Of a stretch of 53,529 nt of DNA, positions 1,575 to 52,371 are shown one piece after another. Origin of the DNA: Nemertoderma westbladi (taxonomy: Eukaryota > Animalia > Xenacoelomorpha); NCBI GenBank assembly GCA_032718475.1, contig JAUCBJ010006994.1:1-53529 (forward strand), given 5' to 3'. The translations under genes were made by a program, and so were the position numbers. How positions within the stretch are numbered: the stretch's first letter is position 1; the number at the start of each line of letters is the position of its first letter. The notes under the pieces are model-generated. The model saw only the letters and a list, made by a program, of their open reading frames with translations. It was not told the DNA's origin and did no database searches.

Positions 1575-1579
1575 CCACC

Positions 1580-6560: not shown

Positions 6561-6572
6561 GCTGCAAATCTA

Positions 6573-8513: not shown

Positions 8514-8519
8514 ATTGGA

Positions 8520-26402: not shown

Positions 26403-26439
26403 AACAAATTTCAAAAAATTTAGTTTTTTTTCAGTTTTT

Positions 26440-27111
26440 TGTTCCCGTTTATTGCCGCGGTCCGCTGCTTAGCCTGCCATCTGTCCCTCAGTTGGGTTCA
26501 CCGTGGTGAAACATGTTAAAAGGCAGATGTAACAAATAATTCTAACTTTATTACAATTATGTGTAAAGTGATAACTAATAAGGCACAATTCACATAGAAA
26601 TAATGTACAAAACTATAATGTAAGGTATAACAAGTAAGCTAAGGTAAGTGATAACTAATGAACAAATCGCACCTTTTATAGCAAATTAGTGCTGCTAACA
26701 ATCGAGATAAATCTAGATTGTTCTATGAGTTCCATTACATTTTTAAAGATAACTATTGGTCCAGCAAACGCATAACTTGCACGACATTGGTTACTGTCAA
26801 ATAACTGCAATCACATTGGTTAATCTACCTTGAGCAGATACAATTAAATTGTAGCGGTCAATTCAAATGAGTTGAAATTTAGCACAAAAAATAATTCACA
26901 CCTGCTAGGATTTGAACTCGATACCTACCAAACGATTGTTTAACACATAACCGACTGAGCTACTGAACCACTTGAATAATGTTGTACAAATAGCTATAGT
27001 AAATCCAAAATAAATGAGGACTTAATGTAATCTTTATAATAATAATGCGAGTTAATTCCAACAAAATAAAAATTTTGAAATTCACGGCTTTTGTGAGGAT
27101 ATAATTCTATA
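26440..27111 (-). repeat. Putative 3' LTR of element C
   Basis: Minus strand: GGAGCGG tract (same as the element B PPT), then TATAG (TG likely mutated), TATAAAAG box at about 26675, AATAAA at about 26547, end ...AATAAACGGGAACA; no partner LTR in the window. Confidence 0.6.
26899..26969 (-). other. tRNA-derived sequence with Pol III A and B boxes inside the putative LTR
   Basis: TAGCTCAGTCGG ... GAGTTCAAATCC; acceptor stem does not pair, so not a functional tRNA. Confidence 0.55.
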
Positions 27112-27329
27112 CCGCTCCATGAAAACAGGATATTATCGGGCTTAAAATATACAGTTTTCACCAATAACAAATCAAATTATGAAATACTTGGGGCGTACCT
27201 ACATATTTACAATTAAATTTCAAACAATAATACTTCCTTTCCACGTAATAATTTGGTACAAAATAATTACAAATTCAAACTTTACATATTTAAGGCTTTA
27301 TCAAGTAGGTACAATATAAATCTAAATTA

Positions 27330-27860
27330 AATTCACCAAATATAAATCTATTGCCTCTCAAATATTGCATAAATTCAAATAATTACAAATACAAATCCTG
27401 CAAATACTGCATATTTTATACAAATAAAATATAAATTGCATAATATTCGAAGTAACTGTAAATACAAATACTGCTTTATATATAACATACAAATTGCATA
27501 ATATTCGAAGTAACTGTAAATACAAATACTGCTTTATATATAAAATATAAATTGCATAAATTCAAATAATTACAAATACAAATAAATGAAATCTTAAGAA
27601 AGGCTCACGAGTCTTCCGTCTACCCTTGCCTCTCAAATATTGCATAAATTTAAATAATTACAAATACAAATACTTTCATACCTAAATATAAATTGCATAA
27701 GTTTGGAATAATTACAAAATATAAATCCTTCTAAATATAAATCTTTCAAATATAAAATATTTCTAATATAATTCTTTCTAAATATAAATCTTTCTCTTTC
27801 GTATAAAATATCAAATGAAATCATAAGAAAGGCTCACGAGTCTTCCGTCCACCCTTTGCC
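27330..27860. repeat. AT-rich degenerate tandem repeats in the element C 3' UTR
   Basis: Repeated AAATTGCATAA..TTCGAAGTAACTGTAAATACAAATACT units. Confidence 0.75.
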
Positions 27861-27867
27861 TTCCATT

Positions 27868-30800
27868 TTATCGCTTTTCGGACCAGGCCCTGCCGCATCC
27901 TTGAAAACTGCGTATAGGCGATTTGGCTCGTAATACGGGACTTATGGGGCGAGTCACTAGTTTACCTTGGACGTTGGGAGATGGTGCGACCATTTCCTCA
28001 CAAGCTCGTCTCTTCGTAAACCCAAATCCTCGTCCGACTCCTCGTGACTGATCGGTTGGTTCTACCGTAGGTAAAACGCCTGGGAACGCGCTGGAAGCGG
28101 ACGGTACAGACCCAAGAGAGACTTGCGCCCCCTTTTGATCGGCTGGTATGTGTCCCAATCCTCCTCGCGATTCTCTGGGAAGCGACACCGTATCTCGAGT
28201 AACTCAAATAGTCGGCTCAAATCCCTTTCACTCTTCAATATTGATAATTTTCTTTAGTTGTTGGCTCACTTTCTGAAACCTTATGATCCTGTTCTGTCCG
28301 TCCTCTCGAGGGTGACGTGCAGACGGCGCAACCGGAGCGGCTGGTAGGTTGGTCGCCTGTAGGATCTCCTCTTCCTCAAATACGCTCGATCGTATGCGTT
28401 TGTGGTAGAAGGCGGCTCGGTACGCCCATGCTACGGTTAACCAAGCTCCCTTGTTTCGCTTTTCTGTTCGGAAATGATCAAATTCACCATACGTAATACG
28501 ATTAACTACTTTCTGGAAGTTCCATGTATTCTTATTATCATGATGAATCTGCAACAAATATTCGCGCACAACCCTAAATCCACTATCGTGAGGCAAAATT
28601 TCAACTACCTCGATTAGTTTGTCATATTGTGGCATAGCGGAGATATATACTTCTGACATCATGGTTTGAGGATTTACCGCCCAAAATCCAAGATGTGCTC
28701 TCATCGGGAATCGTCTTCTTTGTGCCGATACATGTTTGTCAGCTAAATCTTCCCAATTATCAAATAGTTTTCTCACGAGTTTTACAGATTCTTGTTCATA
28801 TGGTATGTCTCGTAATTGACATTCAGATGCTCGATGTCCCTTTATATTGCAGTATGAGCATTGAGCCATAAATCTCCAGCAAGTATAAAATGTATGGGAC
28901 CCCTGATCTCCATACCATCCACAAATCAATTGAGTCGTAGTAATATGTTTTCCGCTACATTTCGTTGAGTGATGTCCAGCGACGCCACATTTGCCACACA
29001 TCGTATTGGCAGAGTACCACACTCGCTCAAATATAAGGTCTCCAATTGGTCCAGCGCTTCCTCCCACACTATAGTCATAATCGTCTGGATCTACAGGTTG
29101 GTATGTTTCAGAAGGTTGTATGCAAACTACAGCATCTGTAGCTTCAAGTTGTCGAATCTCCATCTGAGATTTCTTCGGAAGGTTTCTTTCAATCTCAAGG
29201 AGTTCCTCCAGAGGATCACCAATGATCGTTGTTGCATCGGAATCATCACCTAAGTGACCGATAGGCGTGCGCGTCTGCCGTGATTCGTCTGTAACTTCTA
29301 CGATACGTTCTCCTTCATAAGGTAACATTGTAAACATAGATGGTCTTTCGATAAGAGATCCCGCACAGCGAAGATACACATCTCGAAATATACTAAATCC
29401 TGCTTGAGTAAAGGCATTGCACTGAGCGTCTGAATTGTAGAAGGGTTCGAGAAATCATCTAAACACGTCGGTATGAATTCTCCCTTCCTCGTAGAACGTA
29501 TGTTCTTCTCCGAGACAAAGTGGATGTCGTTTAAGAGTCCAAGACACAATGTCGGCGATCAAGCAAACATTCACTGATGACTCTATCGCTAAATAATATT
29601 GTAGTACTGCTCTTGGAGGTGACGTAATAGCCCAATACACGCATCCTCTCCATTTTAGCTGTGATTCGAACTCGTTTATATCTGGAGTATCACCTTCTCC
29701 ATACGTTTCGATATACTTTGTCTCTTACTTTCCTTGTAATCCCAATTAAACATCAGGTAGGAAATGTATCCAGTTCCAGTCTTTTGAGTATCATACTCCC
29801 GGAAAAATCCTTGTTCTATAGACCACAGTATAAGAGGTCGAGTGTCGACGTAAGGTGTCAGTAATCGGTTGTCACTGTCCGACATGCCGTCAAAGTCGCT
29901 AATTAAGTCCTCTTGCACTCCTGATCCAATCTTTACAACAGTTTTATCTAGAATAATGTTTCTTACCATCTTCGGTAACATTCTAGCATTGATGTTGCAG
30001 GCCTGGCAGATCTTCTTTACTATGTTAGTAATGAGATGATGCCGCTTAGTAGTTCCTTGAGGTATCAGCATTCGTTTGTTGCTTCTTTGTCTACTGAAAA
30101 CGTGCAAGACTCCGTCTGCCGCTCTAATTTGTATAGTATTGGAAGTCAGACTTTGTTGATGGCTGCCGCCCTCGTTATCATAAAACATGTAACCATTTTC
30201 TTGAAATGATCTAAACGTCTTGTTCCATTCGTCCATTAATTCTTCAGAAGGTTGCCAAATCTTCTCTATGTCCTTCTCGTCCTCGAAACGAATAACTTTA
30301 CCTTGCCAATTTGTGGCGATGTCTGTATCCGACTCAAAAGTTCCTGTTCCAATCCACAAGCGAATTGTTCTGGTCAGATATCCTTTCAAGTTACTCGAGG
30401 CTATATTGGCGCCAGCTCTATCCAGTTCCCTAAAGTCTTGAATATGTGGCGGAACGTTATGCACAACCTTTTGCGTAATATGTCTACGTAAATCATATAT
30501 TTAAACCATATCGCTTAGAACAACTGCAGGAAGAAACTCTAAGTTTGAAATGATTTCCGGATGATCCACAATAGGTATTTCGTATGTCGTATCTTCTCGG
30601 ACTGGTATACTAATAGGGAAATTGAGTGTCTTACTCAATGGTTTCGTAGTCGGAGTACTATACAATTGCGTTTCTCTTGTCCTTTCCGGTGATGCAATTT
30701 GTAGTCTCTGAATAACATTTTGAGCAAAGTTTATGCTTTTGAAAATTTCCGGTGTCATCTCCTTAGCTGAAGTTTGATCATGTGACGTCCAATGGTAAGG

Positions 30801-31589
30801 TAGGCTCGCAAGTCTTCCGCCCCATTCTTCCATCTCACCTTCCTCGAAAGCCTTATAGGATCTGTATAGGCTAAGAGCTTCTTTCTTTTCGCGAGTTGAC
30901 TGAGTCACCTCTTCCTGCGTAAGTTCATATGCATCGGGTTCAACAATCTTAGGTGGGCAAACGACAATTTCTCCCGCCTTTGGTCCACAGATAGCAAATG
31001 AATGATACGGATTCGATAAAGGATACCCTCCTTCCTGGTAACATAGTTGTTGATGGTTTGAACACCTCGCTAATATCGGTTCGGGATTTTCCTTATTCAA
31101 ACGCATTGGGATCGCCTTTTGTTGTTCGCGCATACAAGCACCACATTGATAATAAAGTTTATAAACTGAAAAGGCTTCCTTTGTTTCTCTATCGTCTCCT
31201 CGAGTTCGTCTGTAAAGATGCATTCCATCGAATTCATCGCGTACCGCAGGCATAGGTTCATGTGCCTTCAGGTATTGCATGGTATGATACAAGCGACTTA
31301 TTTCTGTATCGGGGTCTTCACTGATATCTTCCGTATCGCATAAAGCATCGTACGGATAAAGTTTGTTGAAGGTTTTACACAAACTTTCGATTCTTTCGTT
31401 TAGAGCGTTCTGCCTTCTCTTTAATACCGTCGAGTCATATTTAGTTTTAGCGAGTTTTGCTGTACTTTCTGATAAATCCTTTTTACCAAATATAGTGTAG
31501 TCTTTTGCTCCAAATCGTTCGAATGGAGCTGCCGCTTCCTCTTGGATATCATATTCCCATCTCGGCTCTCCAGATATCCCCTTTGCCAT
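27868..31589 (-). pseudogene. Accessory gene of element C: N-terminal unknown domain, DEDDy 3'-5' exonuclease-like domain, 3 CCHC zinc knuckles, R/G-rich tail
   Basis: ORF pieces 30501-31589, 29676-30464, 29455-29640, 28228-29379 and 27868-28188 join through in-frame stops and one frameshift; motifs YDNEG, VKIGSGVQED, YVDT, W..P..LQYYLAIE; CGKCGVAGHHSTKC, CSYCNIKGHRASEC. Confidence 0.75.
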
Positions 31590-32242
31590 TATTGGAAGTA
31601 TTGTTACATAATCATTACAACTAGAGGGAATACAACAGTGTTTATGTTAGTTGTGAGGAGCTTTGAGAGTTTTTTGTCTGCCCTTTTGGTTCGACAACGC
31701 TCTAACCTCCTACCCATAGCCTAAGATCTAGGGTTTCTATAATGACACACTGTTTCTTATTTAAAAATTTGCCGAAATAAAAAAGATTTGGGCTAAACTG
31801 GCTGTGAGTCTAAAATACTCACTTTTTGATCCCAAACTATTATCAGAAAAATAAGCAATCAAGAATTAGTAATATAGGGAAGTCTATTGGTTGACGTAAC
31901 TTATTGAAACAAGACCGTGTAAAATTTAATTTTAAAGAAAGGCTCGCGAGTTTTCCGTTCTCTTGTTTCTCTAATTTTAAGTCCCACCCGACTGTACCCT
32001 GAAATCCATTCACTGGAGAAAATTTTAAAAATTTTTCAAATCCAAATGGATTGTCTAAAATTTCGAAAATGTCTCATATTGTGAGTTCCAAGTAGAATTC
32101 CATTTCTTATACCTACAAATCCCGCTCCTATGTGACACATAAGGGTACCACCCTCAATGTTCACATATAAAGACAATGGAATTCTGCCGCTGTCTTTACT
32201 ACAGTGTACAGGTACGTGGAAATCTATTTGGTAAATACCTCA

Positions 32243-33760
32243 CTATTTACTAAGATTAGTTGGAGATTTATAATCTCCAGACTCGTTGCGAGTCTTTTCA
32301 AGAAGTACGAGACGTTGAGTCGGTCTGTCTACTGTACGACCGTCAATTGTCCGTACCGTCACAGTCCTTATCACTCCATCCATAGATGGGTGTGTGTCTA
32401 AAATAACACCTGTTATCCAGAAGCGTCTTTTTAAATTCACTTCTGCCAACAGCACGTGATCTCCCGGCTTTAAAGCGCGGGTGTTGTTGTACTAAGTAGT
32501 TCTGGCGGAAATAGAGGGCAAATAATGGTTTTGCCATATTTCCCAGAATTTGTTAGCCAGTAGTTGCATGATTTTCCACGCTTTTCTACCATAGCTATCA
32601 CCTTCTATTGGAATAGAAATAGGCATCAATGAAGTCGGTGCCTGCATTAGCAGGTGTGCCGGTGTTAAAGCAAACTGGGATTGTTTGTCATCGGGTACTA
32701 ATACTATTGGTTTAGTATTTAGTATTGCCTCGATTTCAACAAACAATGTGGTTAGTTGGTCGTCTGTCAAAATGTGGTGTACTGGAATGACCTTTGCCAT
32801 GGCTGTTTTAATAGATTGTATCAGTCTCTCCCAGACTCCGCCTCTCCATGGACTATCTGGAGGATTAAACTTCCAAACAATCTTGTAAGGACGTAGTTCG
32901 TTTGAGATTTGATCATCATCTAATTTCTTAAAGGCCCTTGCAATTTCATTTCAAGCACCAACAAAGTTTGTACCTTGGTCTGAGTATAAGCATTTTACTA
33001 ATCCGCATCTAGCGATAAATCGCCGTAATGCTAGTATGAAAGCGTTGGTGGAAAGATCCATCACACGTTCAATATGAACTGCCCTACTGGACATGCATGT
33101 AAAAAGCAGTCCCCAACGTTTTACTAGTATACGTCCACGTTTCGTATGTATCCGTATGGGACCAAAGCAGTCAATTCCAGTCTCTGTGAAAGGTGGTCTG
33201 AATTCTTCTAGTCGTGCTTGTGGAAGTTCACTCATTTCTTGGGTACTTATTCTAGAATGTACCTTTTTACAAATAATACACATACACGTCACTGAACTTA
33301 GCGCTTTACTGGGTCTAATTAATACAAATCTTTTACGTAAGTAGGAAAGACAGTGGTGTCTTCCAGCGTGTTTAAGATGTAAGTGTGCGTCCAGTATCAT
33401 TGCACGTTGTAATTCGTGATGTTGCGGTATTATTATTGGGTATCTAAAGTTAGTATAAAAGTATGACAAATTAAGCCATTATATATTATCAGACTCCAAC
33501 TCAATATTGGTAACGACTTGATTGGTTGACCTTGACTTATAGATGTGAATTCACGTGTAAAATATCGCAATTGGTAATGGCGAATTAATTTAATTTCACA
33601 TCTGTCAATCTCAGTCAATGTAAGTCGACGTGTAAAGTTGCGTTTGCCTTTTACGTATTGTACAAAACGTACAATCCACGCTAATTTTCGGCATGCATTT
33701 GTCCAAGAATCGGTCAGGTTTACAATACGGTCGACATAAGTATTTATGACGTCATCAGGC
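32243..33760 (-). pseudogene. pol: BEL/Pao integrase region
   Basis: HLHLKHAG..CIIC, TGIDCFGP, SRAVHIE, YSDQGTNFVGA, EIEAILN, LTPAHLL, DGVIRTV..RPTQRLVLL. Confidence 0.93.
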
Positions 33761-34199
33761 AAGTCAGTGGTAAATTTGGAAGATTTTGTTTTACTAGATG
33801 GGCCCACGGGTCTGCTGGTAGGTATTCCCTTGTTGACTGTTGATCCGTCTGGGTCTACGAGTAATTTGTCCTTCTTTACCTCCTTACTTTGATTGTCGGT
33901 ACTTTGTGAGTCGATCTTTAATGGTGGTTTAAATTCTATGGGATCGCTGGGTTTCGGTAAACTTATTTTTCTGCCGATATTAATACCAGGTCTCACCGTA
34001 GGTTGTAAGGTTGGTATGTCTCTTGAGTGCAAAGTAAGACCTGTATTTACATCTGTATAGGTACTACCCACATCTGTAATACATGAAGTTTCACTGTACT
34101 TATGCTGACTCAAGGGTGTCAAATTATGTACACTGTTACATAGTTTGTCAACAGAAGGCCGCTCCAATAGAGAAACTGCGGCTTTACTATGTGTCAATA

Positions 34200-34408
34200 C
34201 ATTACTAATGTCTGGTAGAACATATTGTGACATGTCTGGTAAAATGTTTCGCGGAACATCTGGCGAAACGTCTTGTGATATGTCTGGCAAAATGTCTGGT
34301 TGTTTGTCTAGTAACGTGTCTGGTTGACCGTCTAGTAACGTGTCTGGTTGACCGTCTAGTAACGTGTCTGGTTGACCGTCTAGTAACGTGTCTGGTTGAC
34401 CGTCTAGT
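34200..34408. repeat. 24-bp tandem repeat inside the pol linker
   Basis: (TGTCTGGTTGACCGTCTAGTAACG)n with degenerate copies. Confidence 0.85.
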
Positions 34409-34448
34409 GAAGAAAGGCTCGCAAGTTTTCCGTTTTTAACTTTATAAG

Positions 34449-34809
34449 TTATATTTTTCCTTTCACCTTCGGTTTTTTCTTAAGTTTTGCCGTTGTCTTT
34501 TTCTTTGCTTTCCCTTTTTTTGGTTTTTTAATTTCAGCGTCTTTAGGGATAGTGTTAGACTTATTATCGTATAGTGGCGGCCAATGTTGTGATGATCTTT
34601 GTAAGAATTGTGGTCCGTGTTGCCAAAATTTCTTGTTTTCCGGTTTACAGAACTCTTCAGGCATCATTCCTCGCGACGCAATATCAGCTGGATTTTGTGG
34701 TCCGTGACAATGTCGCCAATCTTCCTTTATTGAACGGTCTAGAATTTCCGCACGACGGTTAGCTACAAATGTCTTAAATTCAAGTGTGTTGTTGTTTATA
34801 TAAAACAAA
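34449..34809 (-). pseudogene. pol: BEL pol, C-terminal half of RNase H (continues from 41753 across the nested insertion)
   Basis: Removing the insert gives in-frame YWTDATLVLFYINNNTLEFKTFVANR..WRHCHGPQNPADIASRG. Confidence 0.92.
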
Positions 34810-35376
34810 TGTGACGGGATCCGAGAGGATCCCGGTTTATCCGGTATTGGTTAAGTACGCGTCCCCACCGTGTGGATGAAAAGAGTTGTTGTTCTGACGT
34901 TGTCGTTAAGGATATAATATTGAGATAACATATAGTGTATAGGTACAATAGCAGATAGCACTGAATACTGCTGCACTGGTACCGGTAATGTGATGACGGC
35001 GGTGACGGTCCTAACTGTCACCGTACTACCTGACTGTACTGACCGACTGAGATAACTGACTGAATAGGGGAGCACCAACAGGTAATATACTGCACGGTTG
35101 GCCACATTAGTGTACTTAGTCGATGCTGTCCCCCCATTGGCTAATATCCCACTTCTCGCCCCTTCACCTTCCCTGGTGTGTTTCCCGTTCGCCCCAGCTA
35201 TTCTCTCTCTTGTCAGGGGAGTAACCCCTGACCCTTATTGTGTGTGTCTCCTTTGGGGCCTATTGTCCCCGTTTACTGGGCTGACACGAGGTTGATTGGT
35301 AATCAACCTCGTGCTCCCAATATTGCTTTATGGCTCACTCTATGGGTTTGTGTTAGCGGAATTGGATAAGCTAACA
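34810..35376 (-). repeat. 3' LTR of element A
   Basis: TG..CA ends, adjacent PPT, near-identical to 41186-41752. Confidence 0.95.
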
Positions 35377-35759
35377 CTCCCCCCATGCTATCTTCCCGGT
35401 GAGAAGATAGCATCCAACTAAAGTGCGCTACAATTCCGCTGGATCCCGATCTAGCATCGGGTGTGGGGTGGGTATATTTTTTCGGAGTCGGCTTTCCAGG
35501 CCGCTCCCTATGTGTATGATGTCACTACCCTCTGGCGTCTCGTGTCGGGCCGATCGTGCGCTTCTCTCACACAATTTTTGTTTCCCCAACACTCTCACCA
35601 CTCTACTCCAACTCTCGCATACTCCCGGACCTCCTCGTCCCACACTCTTCCTCTCACTTCTCCTCCCCCACACTTGAATTGCGCCCACGCACTCTTCGCA
35701 CTCCGCTCTATTACCTCTCCACTCTCTTGTCACTCCCTAAGGCTTTAATCTCTAATGCT

Positions 35760-37270
35760 ACCCCTGTGCTATCATACTATCTACCTACTGCTTACTAACT
35801 CTAACTATCTAACTAACTCTGCTAACTACTAACTCTTACTACTTCTAGCTCTAACTGAGAGCCTCTAACTTTCTACTGACTCTAACTCTCTACTAAGTCT
35901 AACTAACTCCTACTAACTTTCTAGTTCTACTAACTCTACTTGACTCCTCTGAGTCTACCAACTCTGCTAACTAGCTCTACTAACTCTACTCCACTAGCTC
36001 TGCTAACTCTACTCCACTAGCTCTGCTAACTCTACTAACTAGCTCTACTAACTCTACTCCACTCTTCTAACTACGTGGCGCTTGCGGTGCCCACAACCCC
36101 TTTACTACTACTTCCTTCTACGTGGCGTTGCGGTGCCCACAACCACTCTACTATCTGGCACCCTTTGTGCCCTTCTACTACTCAACTACCTCTCTAACAC
36201 TCTAACCCTACTACTTGGCACCCTATGTGCCCGTCTCTACTACTCTACTCTATCTCTAACTCTCTAACTCTACTACCTGGCACCCTATGTGCCCGTCTCT
36301 ACTATTCTACTCTCTGGCACCCTATGTGCCCTCTCTGCTACCTCTAACACTCTAACTTTACTACCTGGCACCCTACGTGCCCTCTCTACTCTTCTACTAC
36401 CTGGCACTCAATGTGCCCGTCTCTACTCCTCTACTCCCCCTTTACGTCTCATCGCCTACACGTGACGCTCTGAGTGCCGGCAGAGTGGGTACGTTAATTA
36501 TGTGAACTACTACTGACTCTACTAACTCTACTAACTCTCTTCTAACTCTACTAACTCTTTTTGTGCCCGGCACCTCTTGTGCCCGGCACCTTCTAACTCT
36601 ACTAACTCAACTAACTCTACTACTAACTCAACTAACTCTACTACTAACTCTTTTTGTGCCCGGCACCTCTTGTGCCCGGCACCCACCCTAATTAACATAC
36701 CCTGCTCTTACATCAAACACGCCATCACGCCCGTGCCCCACTAAGTTCAGCGCATTCCCTACTAACTCTAACTACGTGGCGCTTACGGTGCCCACAACCC
36801 TCTACTGCTACTACTAACACCCCTAACTAGCGGTACTACGTACCCTCTTACTACTCTAGCTCTCTCTACTAACTAGCGGTACAACGTACCCTCTTACTCT
36901 TACTAACTCTCTAACGGTACTACGTACCCCTTAACTCCTACTCTCTAACGGTACTGCGTACCCTCTAACTCTTACTCTAACTCCACTAACTAACGGTACT
37001 ACGTACCCTCTAACTCTTACTCTCTAATCGGTACTTACGTACCCTCTAACTCCTACTCTCTAACGGTACTGCGTACCCTCTAACTCTTACTCTCTAATCG
37101 GTACTTACGTACCCTCTAACTCCTACTCTCTAACGGTACTGCGTACCCTCTAACTCTTACTCTCTAATCGGTACTTACGTACCCTCTAACTCTAACTAAC
37201 TAGCGGTACTTACGTACCCTCCAACTCTCTAACTAACTTCCTAACTAACTCTTACTACCTAACTTCTACC
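35760..37270 (-). repeat. Strand-biased (AGAGTTAGT)n-like tract with embedded hairpin arrays (element A 3' UTR)
   Basis: Repeated GGCAC-N5-GTGCC and GGTAC-N3/4-GTACC units separated by CTAACT/CTACT linkers. Confidence 0.85.
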
Positions 37271-37303
37271 TACTCTATTATTTAATTATTTTCTTATTTT
37301 TAA

Positions 37304-40300
37304 TTAAATAATTATTTTATATTTTGTGCGTGGGAAGGGCGTCTCGCCCTCATTCCCACCCCCCTCAGTCCAAAACTTTGGACGACTAAAAACTCTCACG
37401 TGCCCCTTCTTCCAGTAGGCACTCTCCTGCTGCCCTCCTATACGTCCTCTAACTCTTCGCCACACTCTCTTCGGTGCCACCTTTGCTGGCCTCCCCCTTC
37501 GTATGTGCGTTGGCATTAGAGCCCTCGACGACCCCCGCTCGTCCCTCAGTATACGCGGTGTCTGCCCATGTAATGCCCCCCCGCACTGTGTCAGCCCTGC
37601 GTGTGTATGCAATACGCCTCCTTCTACTTTCCCGACTCCTTTGCTCATGGACTTCTCTACCCCTGGTTTAGTCCTTTCACATCCTCTCCCTTTCCAACAC
37701 TCTCCGGATCTGTGTCCTTTTACCACACATCGATGACATAGTCCGTTTGCGTCTGTGTAGGCTACACGATCTCGTTTGGGCAACGCTTGCCAGTACTTGC
37801 AACTCCTGGTCTTATGGGTTCCGTCCCGATGTAATTGACATTGGAATCCTGGATTATAGCGTTTCCTGTATAGTCCTTCACGTATCGCGCTTAGGTTTAT
37901 ATGTACCGATTTTATGTTTCGATTGTCTAGACTCGGCCTACTGGGTATATTGGGATTGTGTTTATTTTTGGTGTTATTTTCTTTCTGTCCCTGCCACGGT
38001 GTGGCCCTGCTACCAGCTAACTGTGGACTAGCAGTCCCCTCTATGGCCGCGTGTGGTATCGACTGTCCGCAAGACATTCTCTCGTCCAAGGGGTCCGATG
38101 TTCTTGCTCCTATTGGGGTATATTGTTGATATTGTGATGGGGGAATGTCACCCTGTCCCCCCCCAGCCGGTATGTTTGGTACTGGGGTTGATGTTAGTGT
38201 ATTGGGGCCCATACATCTATCTCCAATAACTCTCCCCTCCCCTGGATGTATGTTATGTCCCTGTGTATTATAGTCATGCTGCTGTACCGATATAGGCCTA
38301 CCTACCTCTCGCCTACCTACCGGTATGTACTCCGCGACTTCCGGGTTTAATCCCGTCGTTCGCGCTACCCCATCGCCTACTCTATCTCTCCCAGCATGGC
38401 CTATAATAGTATGTGCAGTAAGGCCTACAGTATGTCCTGCAGTCTGCATGTGCCCTTCCGAACCGAAGTTTATTCTTCGCGAATCTCGAATCTCCCCGCG
38501 ACTACTGCACTCTCGATCGGCAGCTATATCCCGTCGGGAAGCTTCTCTTCGATCCCCTATCCTGCTCTCGTCTTCGTATTGGTACCTCCTGTACCCCTCT
38601 CTTGGCGTGCGGTGCGTTTCTCCGGGGCGACGGCAATCTCCCGAAGTTCGACCCCACTGGCTCCCTGACTCCATCTCTACTGTGGACGGTCCGTTATCCG
38701 TCCTCGCACTGCTATCGTTCGTGGCGACACTTCTTCTCCTATCTTCTCTTCTTCTCTTTTCTGTGTAGTATTCCGGCTCGTGAGGTCTCTCGTCGACCTC
38801 CCGGTTAAACTCCACTGTTCTTCTTCCCTCTTCTGGTCGGGCTCGACGCTTCGTCTGCCCTCTCGCGACGTCAACCTGCTTCTCTCTGCTCGATCGCACG
38901 CCGCTGGGGATACTCGCAATCCCCCTATTACTCTCCGTCGCCGGTTGTTGCGGTTTACCTATTTTGGCCCGCGCATTATCCGCTGACGGCTGTGGGACAC
39001 TCTCTGCCCCCCCTCTCTCTCTACCAATTTCTCGCGGTGGGGTGTCCGTAGCCCCCCCCCCCCCCCCCCACCCGCCACCTCTAACTTCACTATCTCTTAC
39101 TACACTTCTGTGTCCCTCTTGTCGGACATTCTCTACCCCCCCTCTCTCGCCACTAATCTTATGTGGTGGGGCGCCCGTAGCCCCCCCCCCACTCGCCACT
39201 TCTAACTTCACTACCTCTTGCTACACTTCTACACCCCTCCTGTGGGGCACTCTCTGCCCCCCCTATCTCGCCACTAATCTTATGTGGTGGGGCGCCCGTA
39301 GCCCCCCCCCCCCCACTCGCCACATCTAACTTCACTATCCTTTACTTCGTCTCTACACCCCTCTCTAGTCGACGCACTGTCTCTACTAGGGCTGGGTCTA
39401 TTCACCCCCGCCTCTCTCTCTACTACTGCGTGGCCCACCAGGCCCACCTTGGGTTGGCTCAACCCCGCTACCCCCTGCCTACCAACTACGTGGCCTACCA
39501 GGCCGCCGTCGGGTTGGCTCAACCCTGCCACCTCCTGCCTACTAACTGCGTGGCCTACCAGGCCCCCGTCTGCCGGGTTATGCACGTCCGACACGCTCAC
39601 ATTAGTAGCACCATTCCCAATATTATTTGTTAAATCAATTAAATTATTAGAATTTGAAACGGGATTATTATTTAAATTATTTAAATTAGGATTGTTATTA
39701 TTTTCAAAATTTAAATTATTATTCGTATTATTTGAATTATTCTGAATATTTGAATTAATGTTATTATTTGAATTTAAATTTAAATTACTACTACCAGGTA
39801 AAATATTATTTGCTGCAATAAAGGGATTAGGGTTATCTACTACGGTACTATTAATATTAACTACTTCTGGCGTACTACTATTACCCCCCCCCGCCCGTAT
39901 GGCTACACCACCATTGGGTCTCACTCTCTGACAGTCCCAATCGCGCCAGTTCTAGTCGGCACTTCAGTTTGGCTTGATATTGCATAAGCCCCCTTAGGCG
40001 GGCATGCAAATCATCCCGCTCACGCTTTGCCTCTATCTCTCTCTCTCTCTCCTCTCGTACACTCTGCGCGGCCAACTCTACCCCTCTCACAACCATCTCA
40101 GACCGCCTCGCCGGTTCATCCTCTACTCTCATCTCCTGCTCCATACGCTCCTCGACTCCCTCCCTATACTCCCTCGCCAACTCTCCTAACCTCTCTGAAA
40201 ATGCAACATTACCCCTCAGTTGTCTCTCTAACTGTCTCTGCTCCCACGCCGCCTCTTCTATTTTAAACTTCAGATTTATCTTCCACATCCTTCTTTCTTT

Positions 40301-41122
40301 TGCGGAGGATGTAGCAGAATTATCGGTTGCGACGGACTCCCGCCGCTCCTCCGTCCTACTAGCTTTCCCCCGCCTCCCGGAATTTCCTCCGACCGACGAG
40401 ACCGAATCCTCGGAGTTAACCTCGGATTCGCCCTCCTCAGGTCTCTTCCAACCCACTAATTTTACACCCTGGGCATCGACTAAGTATGGCCCTATGTACA
40501 CTACACTAGGCTGCATACCCCTACACTCCCATAGTTCAACCAGTTCGTTGACAACTCCCCTCGCCCTCTCCTCGGCTAGTTCTCCCTGCCCAGAACACAC
40601 TAGGTAATCAAAGTATCTGTTCGACTCACCTAGTCGTCTCCTCAGTCTCACCTCGTCTATCTCAGCCCCTCCTCTAGCTTCCTTCAGTTGCTCCCGGGTC
40701 GCGGCGTAGGCCCGTCGAAGTCGATCAGAAACCCCGACGTCCTCGTCGCCGACCTCTCCTCTGTCTCTCCGGGTCCGACGTCGTACCGGCGGCCCCACCG
40801 TCGCCGTTCCGGTGGGCCGTCCGTCGCCCTCGGTCTGTGGCTGACCGGTGACATCGGTATGTCGACCCTCGCTCCGCGTCGACTCGTCTTTCTCTTCTCC
40901 TCCCGACTCGTCTCCTCTACTTGACTCGCTCTCTCCTGGTAGACGACCCCCCACATCTTGGTTCGCCGTGTTGCTCGTTATCGACGTCGCGTCAACCTGC
41001 GTCGACGTGGTCGGCGTAGCATCGACCGGCGTCGTGGGTTCGTATCGTCTCGCCGTGGCCTCGCGGATCGTTAGATCGTCGTCCGGGGTCCGCGGCGGTG
41101 TCGTTTCTCCTCCTCTGTTCAT
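37304..41122 (-). CDS. gag-like ORF of element A, split at G homopolymers (probably one ORF of about 1270 aa)
   Basis: ORFs 39881-41122, 39280-39924 and 37304-39211 break at C/G runs; BEL-type CQLH..H..C...CHRCVVKGHRSGEC; coiled-coil N-terminus; Asn-rich segment. Confidence 0.7.
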
Positions 41123-41185
41123 CTTGTCTTCGGTGGCTGGTAGCCACAGTCTGTCAGTGCAGTTCGGCAGGCCTAGAGTTAGGAC

Positions 41186-41752
41186 TGTGACGGGATCCGA
41201 GAGGATCCCGGTTTATCCGGTATTGGTTAAGTACGCGTCCCCACCGTGTGGATGAAAAGAGTTGTTGTTCTGACGTTGTCGTTAAGGATATAATATTGAG
41301 ATAACATATAGTGTATAGGTACAATAGCAGATAGCACTGAATACTGCTGCACTGGTACCGGTAATGTGATGATGGCGGTGACAGTCCTAACTGTCACCGT
41401 ACTACCTGACTGTACTGACCGACTGAGATAACTGACTGAATAGGGGAGCACCAACAGGTAATATACTGCACGGTTGGCCACATTAGTGTACTTAGTCGAT
41501 GCTGTCCCCCCATTGGCTAATATCCCACTTCTCGCCCCTTCACCTTCCCTGGTGTGTTTCCCGTTCGCCCCAGCTATTCTCTCTCTTGTCAGGGGAGTAA
41601 CCCCTGACCCTTATTGTGTGTGTCTCCTTTGGGGCCTATTGTCCCCGTTTACTGGGCTGACACGAGGTTGATTGGTAATCAACCTCGTGTTCCCAATATT
41701 GCTTTATGGCTCACTCTAAGGGTTTGTGTTAGCGGAATTGGATAAGCTAACA
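41186..41752 (-). repeat. 5' LTR of element A
   Basis: TG..CA ends, followed by the TSD. Confidence 0.95.
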
Positions 41753-44455
41753 ACAAAACTAATGTCGCGTCAGTCCAATAAAATATCTGTAAACTTGATT
41801 GTAGTTCAGTCTGTATAATGTTTACAATAGTAGTTGACAAAGTTGCTGCTTGTAGCTCAGCGCGTGGCGTCGTCATGTACTTAGTAGGCATGGTTTTAGC
41901 CTTAGAAGTAATGAGCGATACGTCAAACTCATCTGAGTCTACTTGTCTACGCAGATACGCTGTCACTCCAAAGCCGTTGCCACTGGCGTCGGAAAAACAA
42001 TGTAATTCTAAGTCGTCAGAAAATGTCGTCTGTAATGGAAAATACACCCGGGGTATGGAATAATCCTTTAATGAAGATAATTGCGCCTCCCAAGCTTTCC
42101 ATCTTGTTCCACTTGTTCGAGTGAGATCGGTTCGTCCCATGTCAGTCCATCTTTCCAGATACTGCGCATATATATTCTTGATTGCAGTATTATTGGGCTG
42201 ATAAAACCTAATGAATCAAATAATCGACTCAACTTCGATAAGCAGGACCTCTTTGTCAGAGAATCTCCTTGAGCGTCCAGTCTTACTTTCACTCGAAAGT
42301 TGTCTGTGTTCGGGTCCCAAAATAGTCCCAACACCTTGGTCGTTGGTAGTGGTTCAAATTCCAAATCAATGTCACCACCCCCACGTTCAGTCGTTTTGAA
42401 CGAATTCACCAATTCGGTGCTGTTTGAAGCGAATTTGGTGAGGTTAAAACCTCCACCTGCTAAACAGTTCCGTAATTGATGTGCTACTGTTATAGCGCGC
42501 TCTACTGTGTCACAACTCTATAATCCATCGTCAACATAAAAGTCTCGTTCTACAATTTGGATTACCTCTGGGTCATATTTATGTTTCTGGTCCCTAGCGG
42601 TTTGTTTTAGTGCTAACATAGTACAATTTGGGCTATCTCTGGCACCGAATACGCGAACTTGCATTTGGTAAGTCGCGGTGGTTGACTTAAGTCTCCATCC
42701 GGGTACCAGAGAAACCTCAAACTGTCTCTGTCTCGCTCTAATGCTTGCACTTGGTGAAACATGGCTTCGATGTCGCAAGTAAATGCTACTTGACGTTGAT
42801 GGAAGCGCATAATCACGATGAGGCGTGATTATTGAGATAATTATGAGATAATTATTCATGTTTGGTCCATCCATCAACTCAGTATTGAGAGACATTCCCT
42901 CAAAAAGTGCCATGCAGTCATTAACTACACGTACCTTTTCTGGTTTGTCGGGGTGTCTCATATAGTAATGTGGCAAATAGTATGTCTGTTCTGTCACAAT
43001 CTCCGGGTTTGTCATTCTGATAGTGTACCCCTTTGTCAAATACGTCTCCATTTGAGTATTGTACTGCAAATGGGCTTTCTCGTCCTTTAACAAACGTTGG
43101 CGTATTGAGTTTAAATGTTTTAAGGCTAGTGGATAGTTATTTATAAGTTTTGGACGTTGGTTACGCCATAACATCCCTACCTCATAATGTCTGTCTTTCG
43201 TCTGGCGGATAGTATCCTCCCTGATCTTCAAAGATTGTTTTTCTTGTTCCGACATACATGGTTCGTAACTACCAGGTTCGGCTGTATCTTGTTCCAACCA
43301 TTTGATAGTCTTCTCTGTTAATTCTTTGTCCAGAGCAGCTTGTTCTACTTGACAAATCTTTAATGCGTCGACATCAACGTGCGTTGATAAAGTTATTGGA
43401 ACAGGTAGACTCGCAAGCCTTCCGGCGTTATCATCTATCTTTGATAGAACCTCTGTCTGACTCGTCTCCTTCTCAATCTCCAAACTAACCTTATGTGTTG
43501 ATTTCTGCTCTTTGTGACCTATTATATTCGCTACGCACATCGTACTTGTAACATTGTCGTGTCTCGTTGACTGTTGCGTAGTATAGTCTCTTTCATTTGA
43601 AAAGGAATGAGACAAAGTTGTAGTTAATAAACTACATGTACTTTGTACATCATCTTCCCCATCACTTATATCTAGTGTGCGCACAGGCGCTCAAGTATAC
43701 CAACCCATCGGATTTCTACAGGCATAAGCGTTCCCTGCTACTACTACCGATGGTCTGGTTTCCCACACTTGATGTAAGTTAAATTGGTCTGTCCCAATCA
43801 ACATTGCTGCTGATCTGTAATTAACAGGACATTCTGGTACACCAAGGTGTCTAAAATACTTACGGTCCTCTAAGGATTGTTCTGGCACTGGACCTAGTAG
43901 GTTACTAAAGTCCTTGGTTGCCGCAAAGGTTAAATCCTTAAAAGGTAGCAAAGATCTCTCCTTTTCGCTATGTTGCGATTTTGGAAGAAGAGTGTCTAAG
44001 TTCAATTTAACTCTTGTCACTGGTATTGCACGTTGTCCATACATACTACTTACGGTATATCTGACGTTGTTACCTTGTCAAAGGTCCGTTACGATGTCAG
44101 CTACCTTCTCATCCACATAGCTGTGAGATGAGGCTGAGTCTAGAATGGCGTAAATACGTTTGCTCCCTTTTGTGCCCGTAATCTTGACAGGAATTACGCT
44201 GAATCCTTTCAGTTGATCAGACGTCAGAAGTGCAATCGATGGTTGTTTGTCCCCAGTATCAAAATGTACGTTGTCGTCTTTGGACTCTTCATCCGACAAC
44301 CCGGATTGTTCTGGGAAACAATCCCGTATATGCGTCACAAAAGTTGGTGTTGTTCTCGATTCTCGCGTCTTGTATGCAGTATTACATTTCGCTGCTGCTT
44401 CTGGGTGTTCCCTGGTGAAGCATTTTGTCGGTGTGTGGCTATCGGTATGGAGCAA
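41753..44455 (-). pseudogene. pol: BEL/Pao pol: protease, RT and N-half of RNase H (frameshifted)
   Basis: AILDSASSHSYV; YYLPHY, KVRVVND, SLNTELMDGPN, CDIEAMFHQV, FGARDSP, FYVDD; LHCFSDAS, PRAELQAA. Confidence 0.95.
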
Positions 44456-47400
44456 CGCGTCATGATTGCGTCCACATGAAGGACAGGTGTCCGTATTTGG
44501 ACAGTCTTTACGAACATGTCCGTGTTGTGTACACCTCCAACAAGAATCTAATGGCCGTATTTGTAGCCGTCGTTCTTCTGAGTTTAACTCACGAAACAGT
44601 CTACAACCCCTTAATTTATGACTAGTGTGTCGCTTTCCTATCCGCTCGCAGTATTGACAACCGCTGAAGTCGGCAGTAAGTTGCTGTGTAGTCTATTTAA
44701 TCCCGATTGGTGCGGACACGTTATAACCGTCAGAAAATTGTCGGGTTTCTGTTGGTGTGGCGTAAGTGACCGTCCTTGTGGATGTCATTTGTGGTTTTTG
44801 TTGGTTAGAAGATGGCAAGGTTATCCCCTCGGCTACAATATGTTGGTCAGTGTAGTTCGACCGAGTCTCCACCACTGCTTCCCTAGATATTAATAGGTAA
44901 ACGTCTTCCAATCTCAAAAATCCACCTGTTTCTTCTCGCTGATATTCGATCTTTCTCCACTCCCTACAAAAACGATGATGTAATCTCCCTATTATTTTCA
45001 ATAGGACTGTAGGGGTGTTTCCGTAGTCAAGTTGTCCAATTGACCGTAAAGTCGTAATGGCGTTCTTAATTTTGTCAGCTAATTTTAGTAAGTCCACAGG
45101 TTTAGTAATGGCTCCCCCCTTACAGATTTCTTCTATTACTGACTTGGCCATACTTACCGTACCGCCGTAAATTGAAGTTAAGCGATCATAAGCTAGTTCA
45201 AAGACGTCTGGTACACCGACAAAAGTCTCTGCTAGACGTTTTGATTCTCCCGTCAGTGTCTGAAGCAGGTAGTTAAACTTTTCTCTCGATTTAAAGGCGC
45301 ATGCTGCGATTTGAGATTTGATGTAATCCACAAATGTATGCCAATGTTTTGAATTTCCGGAGAACTTTGGTGGTTGCTGCGCCGGTAGTCCTTGTCTGGC
45401 CGCGAATTTAGCTATCTCTTCTGCAACATTCATAGTTTCGCATCCTAGGGTAGCAATAGAGTTGATTTTCCCCAGTCCTGGACGTCTTTTCTTATACAAA
45501 GTATTTCCTAAAGGTACCATCCTTTGTGGATCCTTCGGGTGTCTGGTATGTTTGAATTCGATGTTTCTCGAACTATCGGTTTAAGTTTCCTCTAAGCGTT
45601 CCTCGATCTGGGCCAACTTGTTAACAACTGGTCGCATTAGGTCGGCAAATTTTTGAGAACAGATTGCGTCGGTTGGTTGTAACGCTTTCTGTGTTGGTGT
45701 ATTTTGTGGAGGATCATCTATAAAGGAATTAGTTGAACGCTCGCGTTTGCATTCATCGGCCGCTCCTGTTCTAAACACCTCGCATTCCGGGTAATCCGAT
45801 TCACTTGAAGTACTACTATCACCTGGATACGGTGGCCGACGTGCTTGTGTCCATTGTGTCGTCTGAATTCTAACACTCCATTTCGAAACATCATCTACTG
45901 GTCTCCGTTGTTCGGTAGACTCACAAGTCTTCCTCGAAGTCGTAGATTGCGATGTAAACTGGTTAAGCGGTTGCGTGTCTACTGGTCTCCGTTGTTCGGT
46001 AGGCTCACAAGTCTTCCTCGAAGTCGTAGATTGCGATGTAAACTGAATCTTTGGTCGCGTGATGGCGTTTGAGTTTAAAGTCCTTGTAGGTCTAAACACA
46101 GTTGGGTTTGCGTAGTGTGTGACAGGTTTGGGTGTCGAAGGTTGACTCACCTGTTTAGTCATCACTAATGTAGGTCCGGCTAATAAACTACTACAATCCG
46201 TTATTGGCGGGTTACTTACCTTGACTTGTGGAATAGGCGATGACGTTGCTCTCGGCGGTATAAACTTATCCGGAATAACAAACCTGTGCTCCGTCGCATC
46301 ATGGATAGGAGAAATATTACTACTACCCACAATCGAAACAGGTTTTTTAGACGTAATTGGTTACAAACATAGGAGTTACTTGAGGAAATCGTTGACATAA
46401 TTAATTAACTAGTTCTCGTCCTTGCTCAGGTGCTCCTACACTTCCTTCCTTTATTCGTTCCTGTTTTTGACGATGCCATACCTCTATCCGGTCTAGATCA
46501 TGTCCGTCTCGAGATCTCATCGATCGATCGCGGGCTTTAAGATCCAGATCCTCCTTGGCGTTGGCTAATTCTCTCGCCTTCCTTTCGAGTTTGAAGTGAA
46601 GTTTAACCTCTTTCTCACGTTGTTCCGTTTGTTGTTGTTGCGCCTCGAACTCCGCTAGTCGTATAGCTGATTGAGCCTTTATTTGCCGTTTTTTTCATCT
46701 CGGCTATCGCTTCTGAATCTAACCTTTGTCGCTCTAACTCGGCCGCTGCCGTTTGTTGCGCTAACTCAGCCGCTGCCGCTTGTTGTGCAATGTCCAACTC
46801 TAACCTTTCCATTTCGGCTGCTTCCAACTCGGCTTGTTCTTGCAGATGAGAGATTCTCGCAACATTTGCAACGCGTAGTTTCTCCTCCTCTACTGCTGCT
46901 TGTATCGTCAGCAGCTTGTTCCTCAATTTCCTGTTGTTGTCTGTAAAACAGTTGCTGTTGTCGAGAAATTTCTGACGTTACTATACTCACCTCGCCAATT
47001 TCGCTGCGAATACTTACCAGTGATTGATCCATTATTTCCGGCGCCAGTTCTGTCTGTACGGGTGAAGTTTCCCTCGTAGCCTTCAGCACGGTTTCCCAAT
47101 CTCCGACATCTTCGCCGAACATACGTAAGTGATCCGTCAAACATTTCAATTGTCCATCCAGTCAATACAGTTCTTGTTCTTCCTCGGGCTGTAATAACTC
47201 ATCAGTAACTGACTCACCTAGCAACTGGTCCGCTTGTTCCTGTTGTATATGTCTAACGGTCGTCTTAAACTGAATTAGTTTCTCCCTGGCGATTATTAAT
47301 TTTTTGAGGATTCTGAACTGAGTGTCCGCATCCTGTCTTTGTCTAGCTAGATCTTGTAGACTGATTAGGTTATCTACGGACTTATGTACTTTACTTTGTA

Positions 47401-47782
47401 CTCTAACCTGTAGGGTGTAAAACTCGAACCAGGACATCGGAGCGGTCAACTCGTCTAATATGCGTTGGCCTTCTCCAATACTCCTGGTAATATGCGCCAT
47501 GTATCCTCCGACGTTTCTAACAATGCTCTCTTGGCTTCCTACTGAACTTACCATGTCCGTTTTCCTGTATCTAGGCTGCGGAACAGTTAGAAAATTCTCG
47601 GTCCTGCCGTCGCCTCGTACTACGGCATCCGGTACTCCCATTGGATGTACTGGTGATGCACACGGTGTAGGTTTGGCAGGCTCGCGAGTCTTCCCCTGTG
47701 GTTCTTCCGCTACTGACTTATCCGCGTCACATGAGTCATACTCGGTAGGTGTATTCTTTGTATAGTCCTGTTTGTCACTCAT
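44440..47782 (-). pseudogene. gag: BEL/Pao gag of element C (disrupted)
   Basis: Coiled-coil N-terminus; PPKFSGNSKHW..EKFNYLLQTLTGE (DUF1759-like); Cys/His boxes at about 44440-44620; 84-bp internal duplication at about 45894-46043. Confidence 0.85.
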
Positions 47783-48007: not shown

Positions 48008-48742
48008 CGGATAACGATATACGTTATCAAAATGTAAATCAAACACAAATAATAACGGACTAGTTCAGCAATAAACAAAGAAATCACACAGAATGCATAA
48101 ATACTTGAGACAGTGGAACCCACAATAATTTTAACTAATATGGTAATGCCTAACTGATTAATGCAACCTTTCGAACTTACCCCCTCCAAATTTCTCCAGA
48201 AAAACAGATTCCCAGATACAAACCGGACGTGAACCTTTCCGTTTCCAGCGTTGCGGACGAAGTGCGATTTTCCCCAACCAAAATTGTTGAGTTATCTATC
48301 TCCCAAACTTGCTAAACACGGTCTTGCTCTCGTTACAGTCTAGAAATGAGCTCTGAATCCTGAAAAACAAAAGAGTTTGGTTTTACTTTTACAAAAATTT
48401 TGTACCGGTACAATATGGTATTTAAACCCTTTTAAACACCGGTATTCAATTCCAAATATTTTACACACGGTTCGAAATCTGAATTTTTATTCAAAAGATT
48501 AGCACTTAGCTGAGCAACTTAATTTAATCGCTGTATTCACGTGGCAACTTTACCAGCAACATGGGCGGCAACTTTTAGAGCAACTTTTAGAGCGAGTTTA
48601 ACTGTAAAATAGTGGGTCATTTTATCTACTAGCTAGTTTTTGATAATTTAATTTGATTATCCCGCTTTAATTCGCCAACGCAAATTCCTTCAAGTTGCCT
48701 TAAAAGTTGAGCAACTTTTACGGCAACTTTTTTACGTGTTTA

Positions 48743-50910: not shown

Positions 50911-51589
50911 GAAGTAATAAGATGAACCCCTTTTCTGCGACAGTTGGTCCTACTTCGCACCTTAGGTGTTAAGTAGGTCATTAATTAATTAAACAATTAA
51001 TTAATTGGTCGATTAAACAATTAATTAATTGTTTAATCGATCGATTTGTATCAAATAATGTTGCCAAAGACAATTTAATTTGATACAAATCAATCAGATA
51101 GGGACGCGAGATGAATAGATTGTACTACAGTAGATGAAATATACAATACAATAGGAACAATAATACAATATACAGTACATTTGTATTATTTTTGTCATAC
51201 AGTAGAAGGTAAAGGTAGAATGAAATATAAAGATGCGAACGGGGCCCAAAACATAAATTAGCCTCACACGAAAATAAAATGGGCCAGTTTGGTCCTGGTT
51301 CAACCTCTCAATAATCTGTGGCTGTTTGTGCTCTTATTATACGTAGCATGGCTAACCCCATTGAATCCTATGTTGAGTTATACTGTATACCAACATGGGG
51401 TTGCACACATTTTAAATTATATAAACCTCCAGCTTCGTTATCATGTAGAACATTGTCAAATCGCCTGAGAAAATTATAATAAACATCTGGTTTGCAATAC
51501 ATTGCATTCTTTCACATTGTGTTGTGAAGCAGCCTGTGCGCCTGACCGCACATAATTAAATAAGGCCCTCTTTTAATACATAAGCCATA

Positions 51590-51696
51590 GCCACACCCAC
51601 AGCCTCACCCTCAGCCACAACATCACCTTCAGCCATAGCCACAGCATCACCCTCAGCCACAGCCTCACCCTCAGCCACAGCCTCACCTTCAGCCAC
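51590..51696. repeat. 18-bp minisatellite
   Basis: (AGCCTCACCCTCAGCCAC)n variants. Confidence 0.8.
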
Positions 51697-51934
51697 TTTA
51701 TTGTCAAATAAGCCTGAGAAAAATTCAAGAAACATCTGGTTTGCAAAAGATTATTATTTTTTCACAACTTCATTCTAGCCTCCCTCTATAATAGCCCCCA
51801 TTCACTGCATTCCCATTCATTCTCTAATTTTCATTTTTCAAAGTTTTATTTATTTTAATAAAAGTTTTATTTATTTAAAATTTTGTAAAATCATTTAACG
51901 AAAATGAAATACTATCAATTGACATTGCTATATA

Positions 51935-52225: not shown

Positions 52226-52371
52226 TCAGAGGAAAGTGAAAATGATGAAACAGAGAGTGAGATAGAGAAAGAAGAAAATGAGAGTGGTGATGAAGAAAAT
52301 GAGAGCGAGAAAGAAGTCGAGGAACATGAAAGTGGGGAGGAGAATGACTCAGATAATTAGGAGATATTAAG

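Follow-up and report, generated by a model that had tools for sequence, protein, structure and literature searches.

A constrained accessory gene with a likely DEDDy exonuclease domain and zinc knuckles behind the pol of a BEL/Pao retrotransposon in Nemertoderma westbladi

Introduction

The rotifer retrotransposons Juno and Vesta are Gypsy-like elements with long terminal repeats (LTRs). As described by Rodriguez et al. (2017; PMC5408684), both carry behind pol a third open reading frame (ORF3) for a DEDDy exonuclease, acquired at least twice and found also in Athena/Terminon, a case repeated in PMC6431247 and PMC6338049. In that account the rotifer ORF3s have a DEED motif, their activity is unshown, and roles in silencing and in 3' processing are both raised; the neutrality test given there, on env- and GDSL-like ORFs within a genome, found no departure from neutrality. 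TbRND of trypanosomes (PDB 7c42/7c45; PMC7797062) is reported as a 3'-5' exonuclease whose four CCHC fingers enhance both its binding of RNA and its cleavage and trimming of guide RNAs. For BEL/Pao elements, the accessible text of a survey of 62 genomes (PMC3118150) mentions env as the sole occasional extra gene and has the word "exonuclease" 0 times, and that of PMC8220671 likewise has no exonuclease in BEL/Pao. Here we describe an accessory gene, also called ORF3 below, that lies behind the integrase of a decayed BEL/Pao element of Nemertoderma westbladi and likely encodes a divergent DEDDy domain followed by CCHC zinc knuckles. The window analyzed is a stretch of 53,529 nt (assembly GCA_032718475.1, contig JAUCBJ010006994.1, positions 1 to 53,529). 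At stake is whether retrotransposons of animals encode an active counter-defence to silencing by small RNAs.

Results

A constrained gene behind the integrase

The start codon of ORF3 lies 654 nt past the integrase stop on the same strand (Table 1). A sequence-only reading of this locus had described one long gene here. Its full extent and frames hold, but the gene in place (copy 1) is not a single ORF: it is broken at five sites, by in-frame stops at 30503, 29457, 28230 and 28206 and by a frame change near 29718-29721. The motifs quoted in that reading are all present, including a middle knuckle intact in a second copy; the second Cys of this knuckle is replaced in copy 1 and present in copy 2.

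Copy 2 is a relic of the leader and accessory gene in the same window, and its exonuclease region is a single open frame (49708-50715). Across 835 codons, this one pair of copies gives a nonsynonymous rate (dN) of 0.040, a synonymous rate (dS) of 0.488 and a dN/dS of 0.08, as compared to 1.6 in both shifted frames. Third codon positions hold 190 of the 268 differences (p 4e-36). By region, dN/dS is 0.07 for the N-terminal part (130 codons), 0.10 and 0.07 for the exonuclease, 0.18 for the linker, 0.03 for the knuckles and 0.07 for the C-terminal region (134 codons within 28300-28701). A ratio of 0.08 sustained through all domains, against 1.6 in the shifted frames, identifies a real, constrained gene and shows that the frames first proposed were right. 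ORF3 has thus been under strong purifying selection along the whole protein, and this signal makes the observation firmer than the sequence-only reading could have known. The low ratio further indicates that the cargo mattered to the spread of the element.

The knuckle profile PF00098 matches with E 7.7e-4 and 19.9 bits (cut-off 20.8), and two of the three knuckles have the retroviral CX2CX4HX4C spacing. The N-terminal region, compared with family libraries only, gave no Pfam, NCBIfam or PHROG match over 30504-31589. An R/G-rich tail, as claimed earlier, is present but modest in composition (R+G 22%, 3 RG in 119 codons), and a comparison with the RG motifs of Vasa was set aside as weak at these values. 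The maximum mean Kyte-Doolittle hydropathy over 19 residues is 1.38, and the N-terminal piece reaches 1.10 far from the start. By hydropathy alone, with no dedicated predictor of transmembrane (TM) segments or signals used, no TM segment or N-terminal signal is thus evident, in agreement with the earlier view that the gene is not env.

The leader ahead of the start codon is conserved as well, with 14 differences in 190 nt (7%) versus 36% at synonymous sites. Both copies have a branch-point-like CTAAC (31650-31646), a pyrimidine tract and an AG (31622-31621) 32 nt before the ATG. The leader is therefore likely, as judged from these signals, to act as a splice acceptor for a subgenomic mRNA. Splice acceptors serve env genes in this way.

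Table 1 Features of the BEL/Pao element and associated sequences in the window.
Feature	Coordinates	Strand	Remarks
gag, decayed	44081..47782	(-)	ATG 47782; DUF1759 in 44696-45580 (PF03564, E 1.4e-10); knuckle 44501-44542
pol, 5' part	41753..44146	(-)	protease-like LDSAS 44114-44146; YVDD of reverse transcriptase (RT) 42524-42538; Pao RNase H (Peptidase_A17) 41682-42517
Younger nested LTR element	34810..41752	(-)	splits pol; 567-bp LTRs 34810-35376 and 41186-41752, 99.3% identical; 5-bp target duplication ACAAA
pol, 3' part	32243..34809	(-)	integrase zinc finger, core, DUF5641; stop 32243-32245
Spacer	31590..32242	(-)	last 195 nt conserved between copies
Accessory gene (ORF3)	27868..31589	(-)	~1,240 codons; ATG 31589, stop 27868-27870; four stops and one frame change
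N-terminal region, no known family	30243..31589	(-)	Cys/His cluster; CxxC 31134-31145
Likely DEDDy (WRN/EXD-like) 3'-5' exonuclease domain	29560..30242	(-)	ExoI YMFYDNEG 30168-30191; TIQIR 30123-30137; ExoII LPKMV...VQEDL 29904-29978; YVDT 29832-29852; ExoIII W..QYYLAIE 29581-29634
Three CCHC zinc knuckles	28819..28998	(-)	28957-28998, 28879-28923 (middle), 28819-28860
C-terminal region, conserved, no known family	28228..28818	(-)	dN/dS 0.07
Low-complexity tail, mildly R/G-rich	27868..28227	(-)	past two stops; outside copy 2 and selection test
AT-rich degenerate repeats, 3' untranslated region	27351..27861	(-)	283 nt, 68% identity
Candidate 3' LTR start	26660..27242	(-)	purine tract GGAAAGGAAG 27242-27233, then TG at 27226; without partner in window; inferred
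Preserved BEL 5' end, possibly a remnant of an LTR	48285..48511	(-)	contig ends, opposite-strand joints; LTR status inferred
Relic copy 2 of leader and accessory gene	48743..52984	(-)	87-91% identical; internal deletion 52765; other DNA 50911-52371; cut at 48743

The middle domain resembles WRN/EXD-type exonucleases

In an ESM Atlas search that was not given the DEDDy hypothesis, the whole copy-2 ORF placed a PF01612 cluster third (0.86). With residues 5-238 and named clusters only, PF01612 made up 29 of 30 matches (top 0.91). Profiles of WRN-like exonucleases were built from bacterial proteins; among solved structures, the nearest to these proteins are WRN, EXD2 and Mut-7. Run unfiltered on the 237 ORFs of the window, the profiles put the copy-1 ORF in first place (6.0 and 6.9 bits), with copy 2 in fifth and third place. 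With a mixed DEDDy profile the two copies came first and second, and an RNase D profile put copy 2 first. The ExoI-II piece was equaled or exceeded by 2 and 0 of 1000 shuffles. The ExoII block was aligned with its Asp by hmmsearch in both copies, with 0-6 of 1000 shuffles scoring as high. A glocal alignment of copy 1 recovered ExoI, ExoII and ExoIII in order and as first placed (z 2.8; 2 of 300 shuffles), with z 2.3 for copy 2, and by eye the motif spacing agrees with EXD2 and WRN. The inferred tetrad of copy 1 is D-E-D-E.

Several results weigh against this assignment. The top Atlas match shares 150 features, where 170 is typical for the same family, which makes it a promising lead below same-family strength; that search took in named clusters only, with a stretch of the ORF chosen by the analyst as query. 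PF01612 itself gave no match at E 10 with filters on, short of the family threshold, and the exonuclease region has no Pfam, NCBIfam, PHROG or PDB sequence match. Alignment by hhalign to 10 WRN-like proteins returned only a spurious match (probability 0.3), and NrnC and PolA profiles gave no signal. The custom profiles score 4-8 bits with the ExoII block as the only part aligned in the local hidden Markov model (HMM), which did not place ExoI; the ExoIII piece did not score on its own, and MAFFT aligned ExoI and ExoIII differently. Glocal scores are 17-21 here versus 28-60 for true DEDDy controls. ExoI reads D-N-E in copy 1 and Y-N-E in copy 2, which thus lacks the Asp, and ExoIII is Y-L-A-I-E in both, with Glu for the expected Asp (Y-x3-D).

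Structure prediction was uninformative. A single-sequence AlphaFold model (pLDDT 33.5) is too low to count either way; a model with 58 WRN-like rows (pLDDT 42.0) is partly circular and misaligned at ExoI, and at this confidence had no Foldseek match.

Could the protein be a constrained accessory protein with a middle domain that is not DEDDy, the motif match being coincidental? The blank standard profile, profile-profile and structure searches fit such an account, as do the weak custom scores from a profile family picked after reading the hypothesis. A language-model search made without the hypothesis nonetheless gave PF01612, both copies are top-ranked among the 237 ORFs and the motif order is collinear; we consider coincidence quite improbable. 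A divergent DEDDy fold in ORF3 is, in our judgment, highly probable. Of the earlier DEDDy call, the WRN/EXD-like resemblance is upheld by the Atlas, profile and glocal results, whereas for the fold itself Pfam, PDB, hhalign and the models are blank or uninformative. The domain likely resembles the WRN/EXD type while falling short of formal PF01612 membership.

The replaced ExoIII residue also bears on activity. A weak or dead DEDDy-derived RNA-binding adaptor, similar to Egalitarian or EXD1 and serving transport of element RNA, granule entry or shielding from Piwi, would account for the ExoIII Glu in both copies and for the large insertions around the motifs. It has precedents in the DEDDy domain of Egalitarian, described as working without catalytic residues and binding localisation signals including that of the I factor, and in Exd1, described as inactive (bioRxiv 10.1101/2025.08.03.668247). 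Copy 1 is, however, acidic at all four inferred positions, and the ExoII Asp and ExoIII Glu are common to both copies; an adaptor appears unlikely. In our judgment, the putative DEDDy domain would somewhat more probably be catalytically active than inactive.

To the eye, the strand that follows ExoI lent itself well to an NrnC-like reading, which was dropped when 85-104 of 1000 shuffles scored as high with an NrnC profile; a motif filter had removed 20 of 61 loci before the profiles for this test were built. Separately, stand-alone WRN-like exonucleases were seen at 10 loci (L094-L103) in a 71-genome sample of Pseudomonadota, where the closest named proteins are from Magnetococcales, and at E 1e-15 in 1 of 151 genomes of the class of E. 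coli.

Searches for relatives of ORF3

No relative was recovered from protein databases. The exonuclease ORF yielded 591 candidates, of lengths 184-587 only, none at E 1. For the knuckle ORF the candidates were longer and numbered 2,687, and not one reached E 0.1. A two-copy profile against 1.84 billion representatives gave 0 matches at E 0.001, and a 5.8-billion-protein index yielded no relative. Of the pattern matches, 0 of 4 in viral contigs and 0 of 114 in metagenome contigs were confirmed. Plasmids gave one chance match at E 10, PDB sequences gave 4 chance matches in one search and 0 in another, and NCBIfam and PHROGs gave nothing relevant.

ORF3 as part of the element

We compared 25000-34800 with contigs from four public runs, all of a single species and from no more than three samples. 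The runs contribute 6,938, 4,322, 3,041 and 296 contigs, with identities from <90% to >99% and 30 of 30 bins covered. Contigs cover integrase, spacer and ORF3, and 0-3% continue into unlike sequence. Within the spacer, positions 31597, 31645, 31785, 31847 and 32075 are spanned in runs X1-X3 or some of these, and a single 1,887-nt contig covers 29645-31530 with one gap. At three of the five break sites the contigs do not agree with the window, and the breaks there thus seem specific to copy 1. Variants of the accessory gene with internal deletions also occur among the contigs, with joints 29420-31450 and 29302-31424; deleted subfamilies therefore exist.

Alternatively, ORF3 might be a host gene, or part of a different mobile element, and lie behind the integrase by chance. 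Self-comparison and sensitive local alignment found no LTR pair in the window, that is, no repeat joining the region upstream of gag to the region downstream of the accessory gene, which counts against a place inside the element. Copy 2 has no integrase before it, its likeness ending at 31784, and no contig bridges integrase and start codon among the 32 of 14,763 contig pieces listed. Against a foreign origin, the gene is on the same strand and in the env position, and no target duplication or terminal repeat of its own was seen. Position 31785, next to the end of copy 2 likeness, is spanned at a summed depth of 6,000-10,000 in X1-X3 (a depth is not a copy number), and few contigs continue there into unlike sequence. 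The contigs number in the thousands and are 80-100% identical, which fits a repeat, not a single host gene. We therefore regard a chance neighbor as very improbable, and ORF3 as very probably a standard component of a BEL family with many copies.

Architecture and ends of the BEL/Pao element

The domain order gag-protease-RT-RNase H-integrase-DUF5641 is that of BEL/Pao, with the RT recognized by its YVDD motif alone. Peptidase_A17 (PF05380), given as the BEL/Pao RNase H in PMC3985635, matches at E 3.5e-24 and 1.4e-12, and the integrase part scores under the cut-off (PF17921 E 2.8e-4, PF18701 E 2.2e-3). The data support a decayed BEL/Pao LTR retrotransposon, and the DUF1759 gag and Peptidase_A17 matches bear out the identity first proposed.

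The gene does lie behind the integrase, as that reading had it, while the "putative 3' LTR" placed beyond the gene has no repeat partner in the window. Repeat cover falls near 26640-26670, close to the candidate in Table 1. The best local alignment in the LTR search (score 104; shuffles up to 85.5) was of gappy AT-rich sequence and was rejected. On the 5' side a separate hairpin repeat (48512-48743) truncates the element at 48511, so the 5' and 3' remnants need not overlap, and they may be non-overlapping parts of one LTR. At 48743 contigs run into other sequence and have loose ends. The hairpin-repeat fragment, between copy 2 and the BEL 5' end, is rich in AAAGTTGC units. Scans for tRNAs and Rfam families gave no match, and no primer-binding site was identified. 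By eye, 26880-26990 (-) has a tRNA-like A-box and B-box, resembling the head of a short interspersed element, with no match by ARAGORN or Rfam; the high contig cover at 26635-27000 may be due in part to these motifs.

The nested element that splits pol has a purine tract, GGGGGGAG, ahead of its 3' LTR, tandem repeat arrays at 35900-37260 and 38990-39360, and ORFs of 443, 223 and 638 codons with no Pfam match and no pol; it is likely non-autonomous. An older inverted relic of its 3' end and LTR (74-76% identical) lies at 57-1584 (+).

Other repeats occupy the remainder of the window. A second BEL/Pao family is represented at 13138-16923 (+) by an open ORF of 1,261 codons (DUF1759 E 2.2e-13), in which gag and protease appear to be followed by an RNase H-like end with no RT, the mark of an internal deletion. 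A Gypsy-like element at 5627-9110 (+) has a PNMA-like gag, a protease, an RT, an RNase H and an integrase. There are also a 1.1-kb direct repeat pair (9805-10964 and 20195-21423, 83-87%), a ~350-bp tandem unit (25648-26408), and a long imperfect inverted repeat resembling a miniature inverted-repeat transposable element (2926-4231).

Discussion

What would such a protein do for the element? The gene stands behind the integrase, is constrained in all its domains and encodes no TM segment. It would be expressed, env-like, from a spliced subgenomic mRNA. Its product likely adopts a DEDDy fold of the WRN/EXD branch (ExoI D-x-E, ExoII D, variant ExoIII Y-x3-E), and by analogy with TbRND the knuckles would hold single-stranded RNA upstream of the active site. 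If the substrate were guide RNA or slicer-made silencing fragments, the outcome would be weaker germ-line silencing. We tentatively suggest, at somewhat less than even confidence, that ORF3 is a cytoplasmic RNA 3'-5' exonuclease that would shorten or degrade those small RNAs of the host, or those tailed RNA ends, that are directed against the element.

Two further points count against the proposal. The knuckles lie ~190 residues from the exonuclease, as compared to 28 in TbRND. Mature PIWI-interacting RNAs (piRNAs) are 2'-O-methylated and Piwi-bound, and would thus be poor exonuclease substrates. The most specific version of the idea, that a BEL/Pao lineage fixed in place of env a TbRND-like small-RNA nuclease (DEDDy, triple CCHC and two conserved domains of no known family) that destroys piRNA guides, seems to us doubtful.

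The same domain evidence from the Atlas, the profiles, the glocal alignments and the selection analysis would also fit an active DEDDy nuclease in the service of replication, which shortens genomic RNA, primer or cDNA at the 3' end or proofreads reverse transcription, with knuckles that tether it to particle RNA as those of Gag do. WRN-type domains also act on DNA, two knuckles have the retroviral spacing, and 3'-end processing was proposed first for the rotifer ORF3s, as stated in PMC5408684, and for the exonucleases of Dada transposons in the description of PMC3706591. By the account in PMC3118150, however, gag and pol suffice for most BEL/Pao elements, so no core step of replication needs ORF3, and 1,240 residues far exceed the needs of trimming. 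A replication role is accordingly rather unlikely in our estimation; counter-defence by RNA trimming remains our preferred, if tentative, reading.

The sequence-only reading knew of no such cargo in BEL/Pao and overstated its novelty, since a DEDDy ORF3 behind pol (PMC5408684) and an exonuclease joined to CCHC fingers (PMC7797062) are both described. No report of exonuclease cargo in BEL/Pao was found in the open literature, with supplements, Repbase, Dfam and subscription journals outside the search, the slashed spelling "BEL/Pao" partly missed and most items judged by listing, so a prior record is possible. New here are the BEL/Pao host, the fusion of exonuclease and knuckles, the selection evidence, the lack of a database relative and two additional conserved regions that belong to no known family. 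A likely DEDDy gene is now placed in another LTR superfamily, in a many-copy family and under constraint as strong as that of a core gene, and ORF3 provides a testable enzyme. Capture repeated in Juno, Vesta, Athena, Dada and now BEL would make 3'-end trimming a benefit to which mobile elements return.

Among cellular proteins, the WRN/EXD2/Mut-7-Nibbler branch of PF01612 shares with ORF3 the ExoII pattern L..I..D...VK.G.G...D, D.R.L, a late W and Y..acid in the same order; ORF3 differs in falling below Pfam detection, in insertions of ~35, 12 and 24 residues and in its ExoIII Glu. Egalitarian and EXD1 likewise place a DEDDy domain in a large RNA-binding protein, and Egalitarian is described as binding a retrotransposon signal, but both are host-encoded, with no CCHC array in the descriptions available. 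TbRND is the works-like analogue, with no homology shown: it too joins a 3'-5' exonuclease to a following CCHC array, but is a cellular mitochondrial RNase D with four knuckles after a 28-residue linker, whereas ORF3 is a mobile-element protein of 1,240 residues with three knuckles.

Among mobile elements, Dada DNA transposons (PMC3706591) are described with a transposon-borne DEDDy exonuclease, and a CCHC finger in the transposase, although in these elements, from a fungus and a brown alga, the DEDDy domain is an insertion within a DDE transposase. The AlkB m6A-demethylase ORF of an orchid Gypsy element (PMC9289625) is reported as a further RNA-modifying enzyme carried as an extra ORF with a proposed counter-defence role; it is another enzyme in another superfamily, with activity shown in vitro. 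Closest are Juno, Vesta and Athena, in which, as described, the env position is likewise taken by a DEDDy gene similar to RNase D, with no TM or coiled-coil segment and an altered tetrad. This likeness is one of description. In the available text of PMC5408684 "CCHC" occurs 0 times and the lineages are not named BEL/Pao, and neutrality was not rejected for env- and GDSL-like ORFs within a genome, in contrast to the dN/dS of 0.08 measured for ORF3 here.

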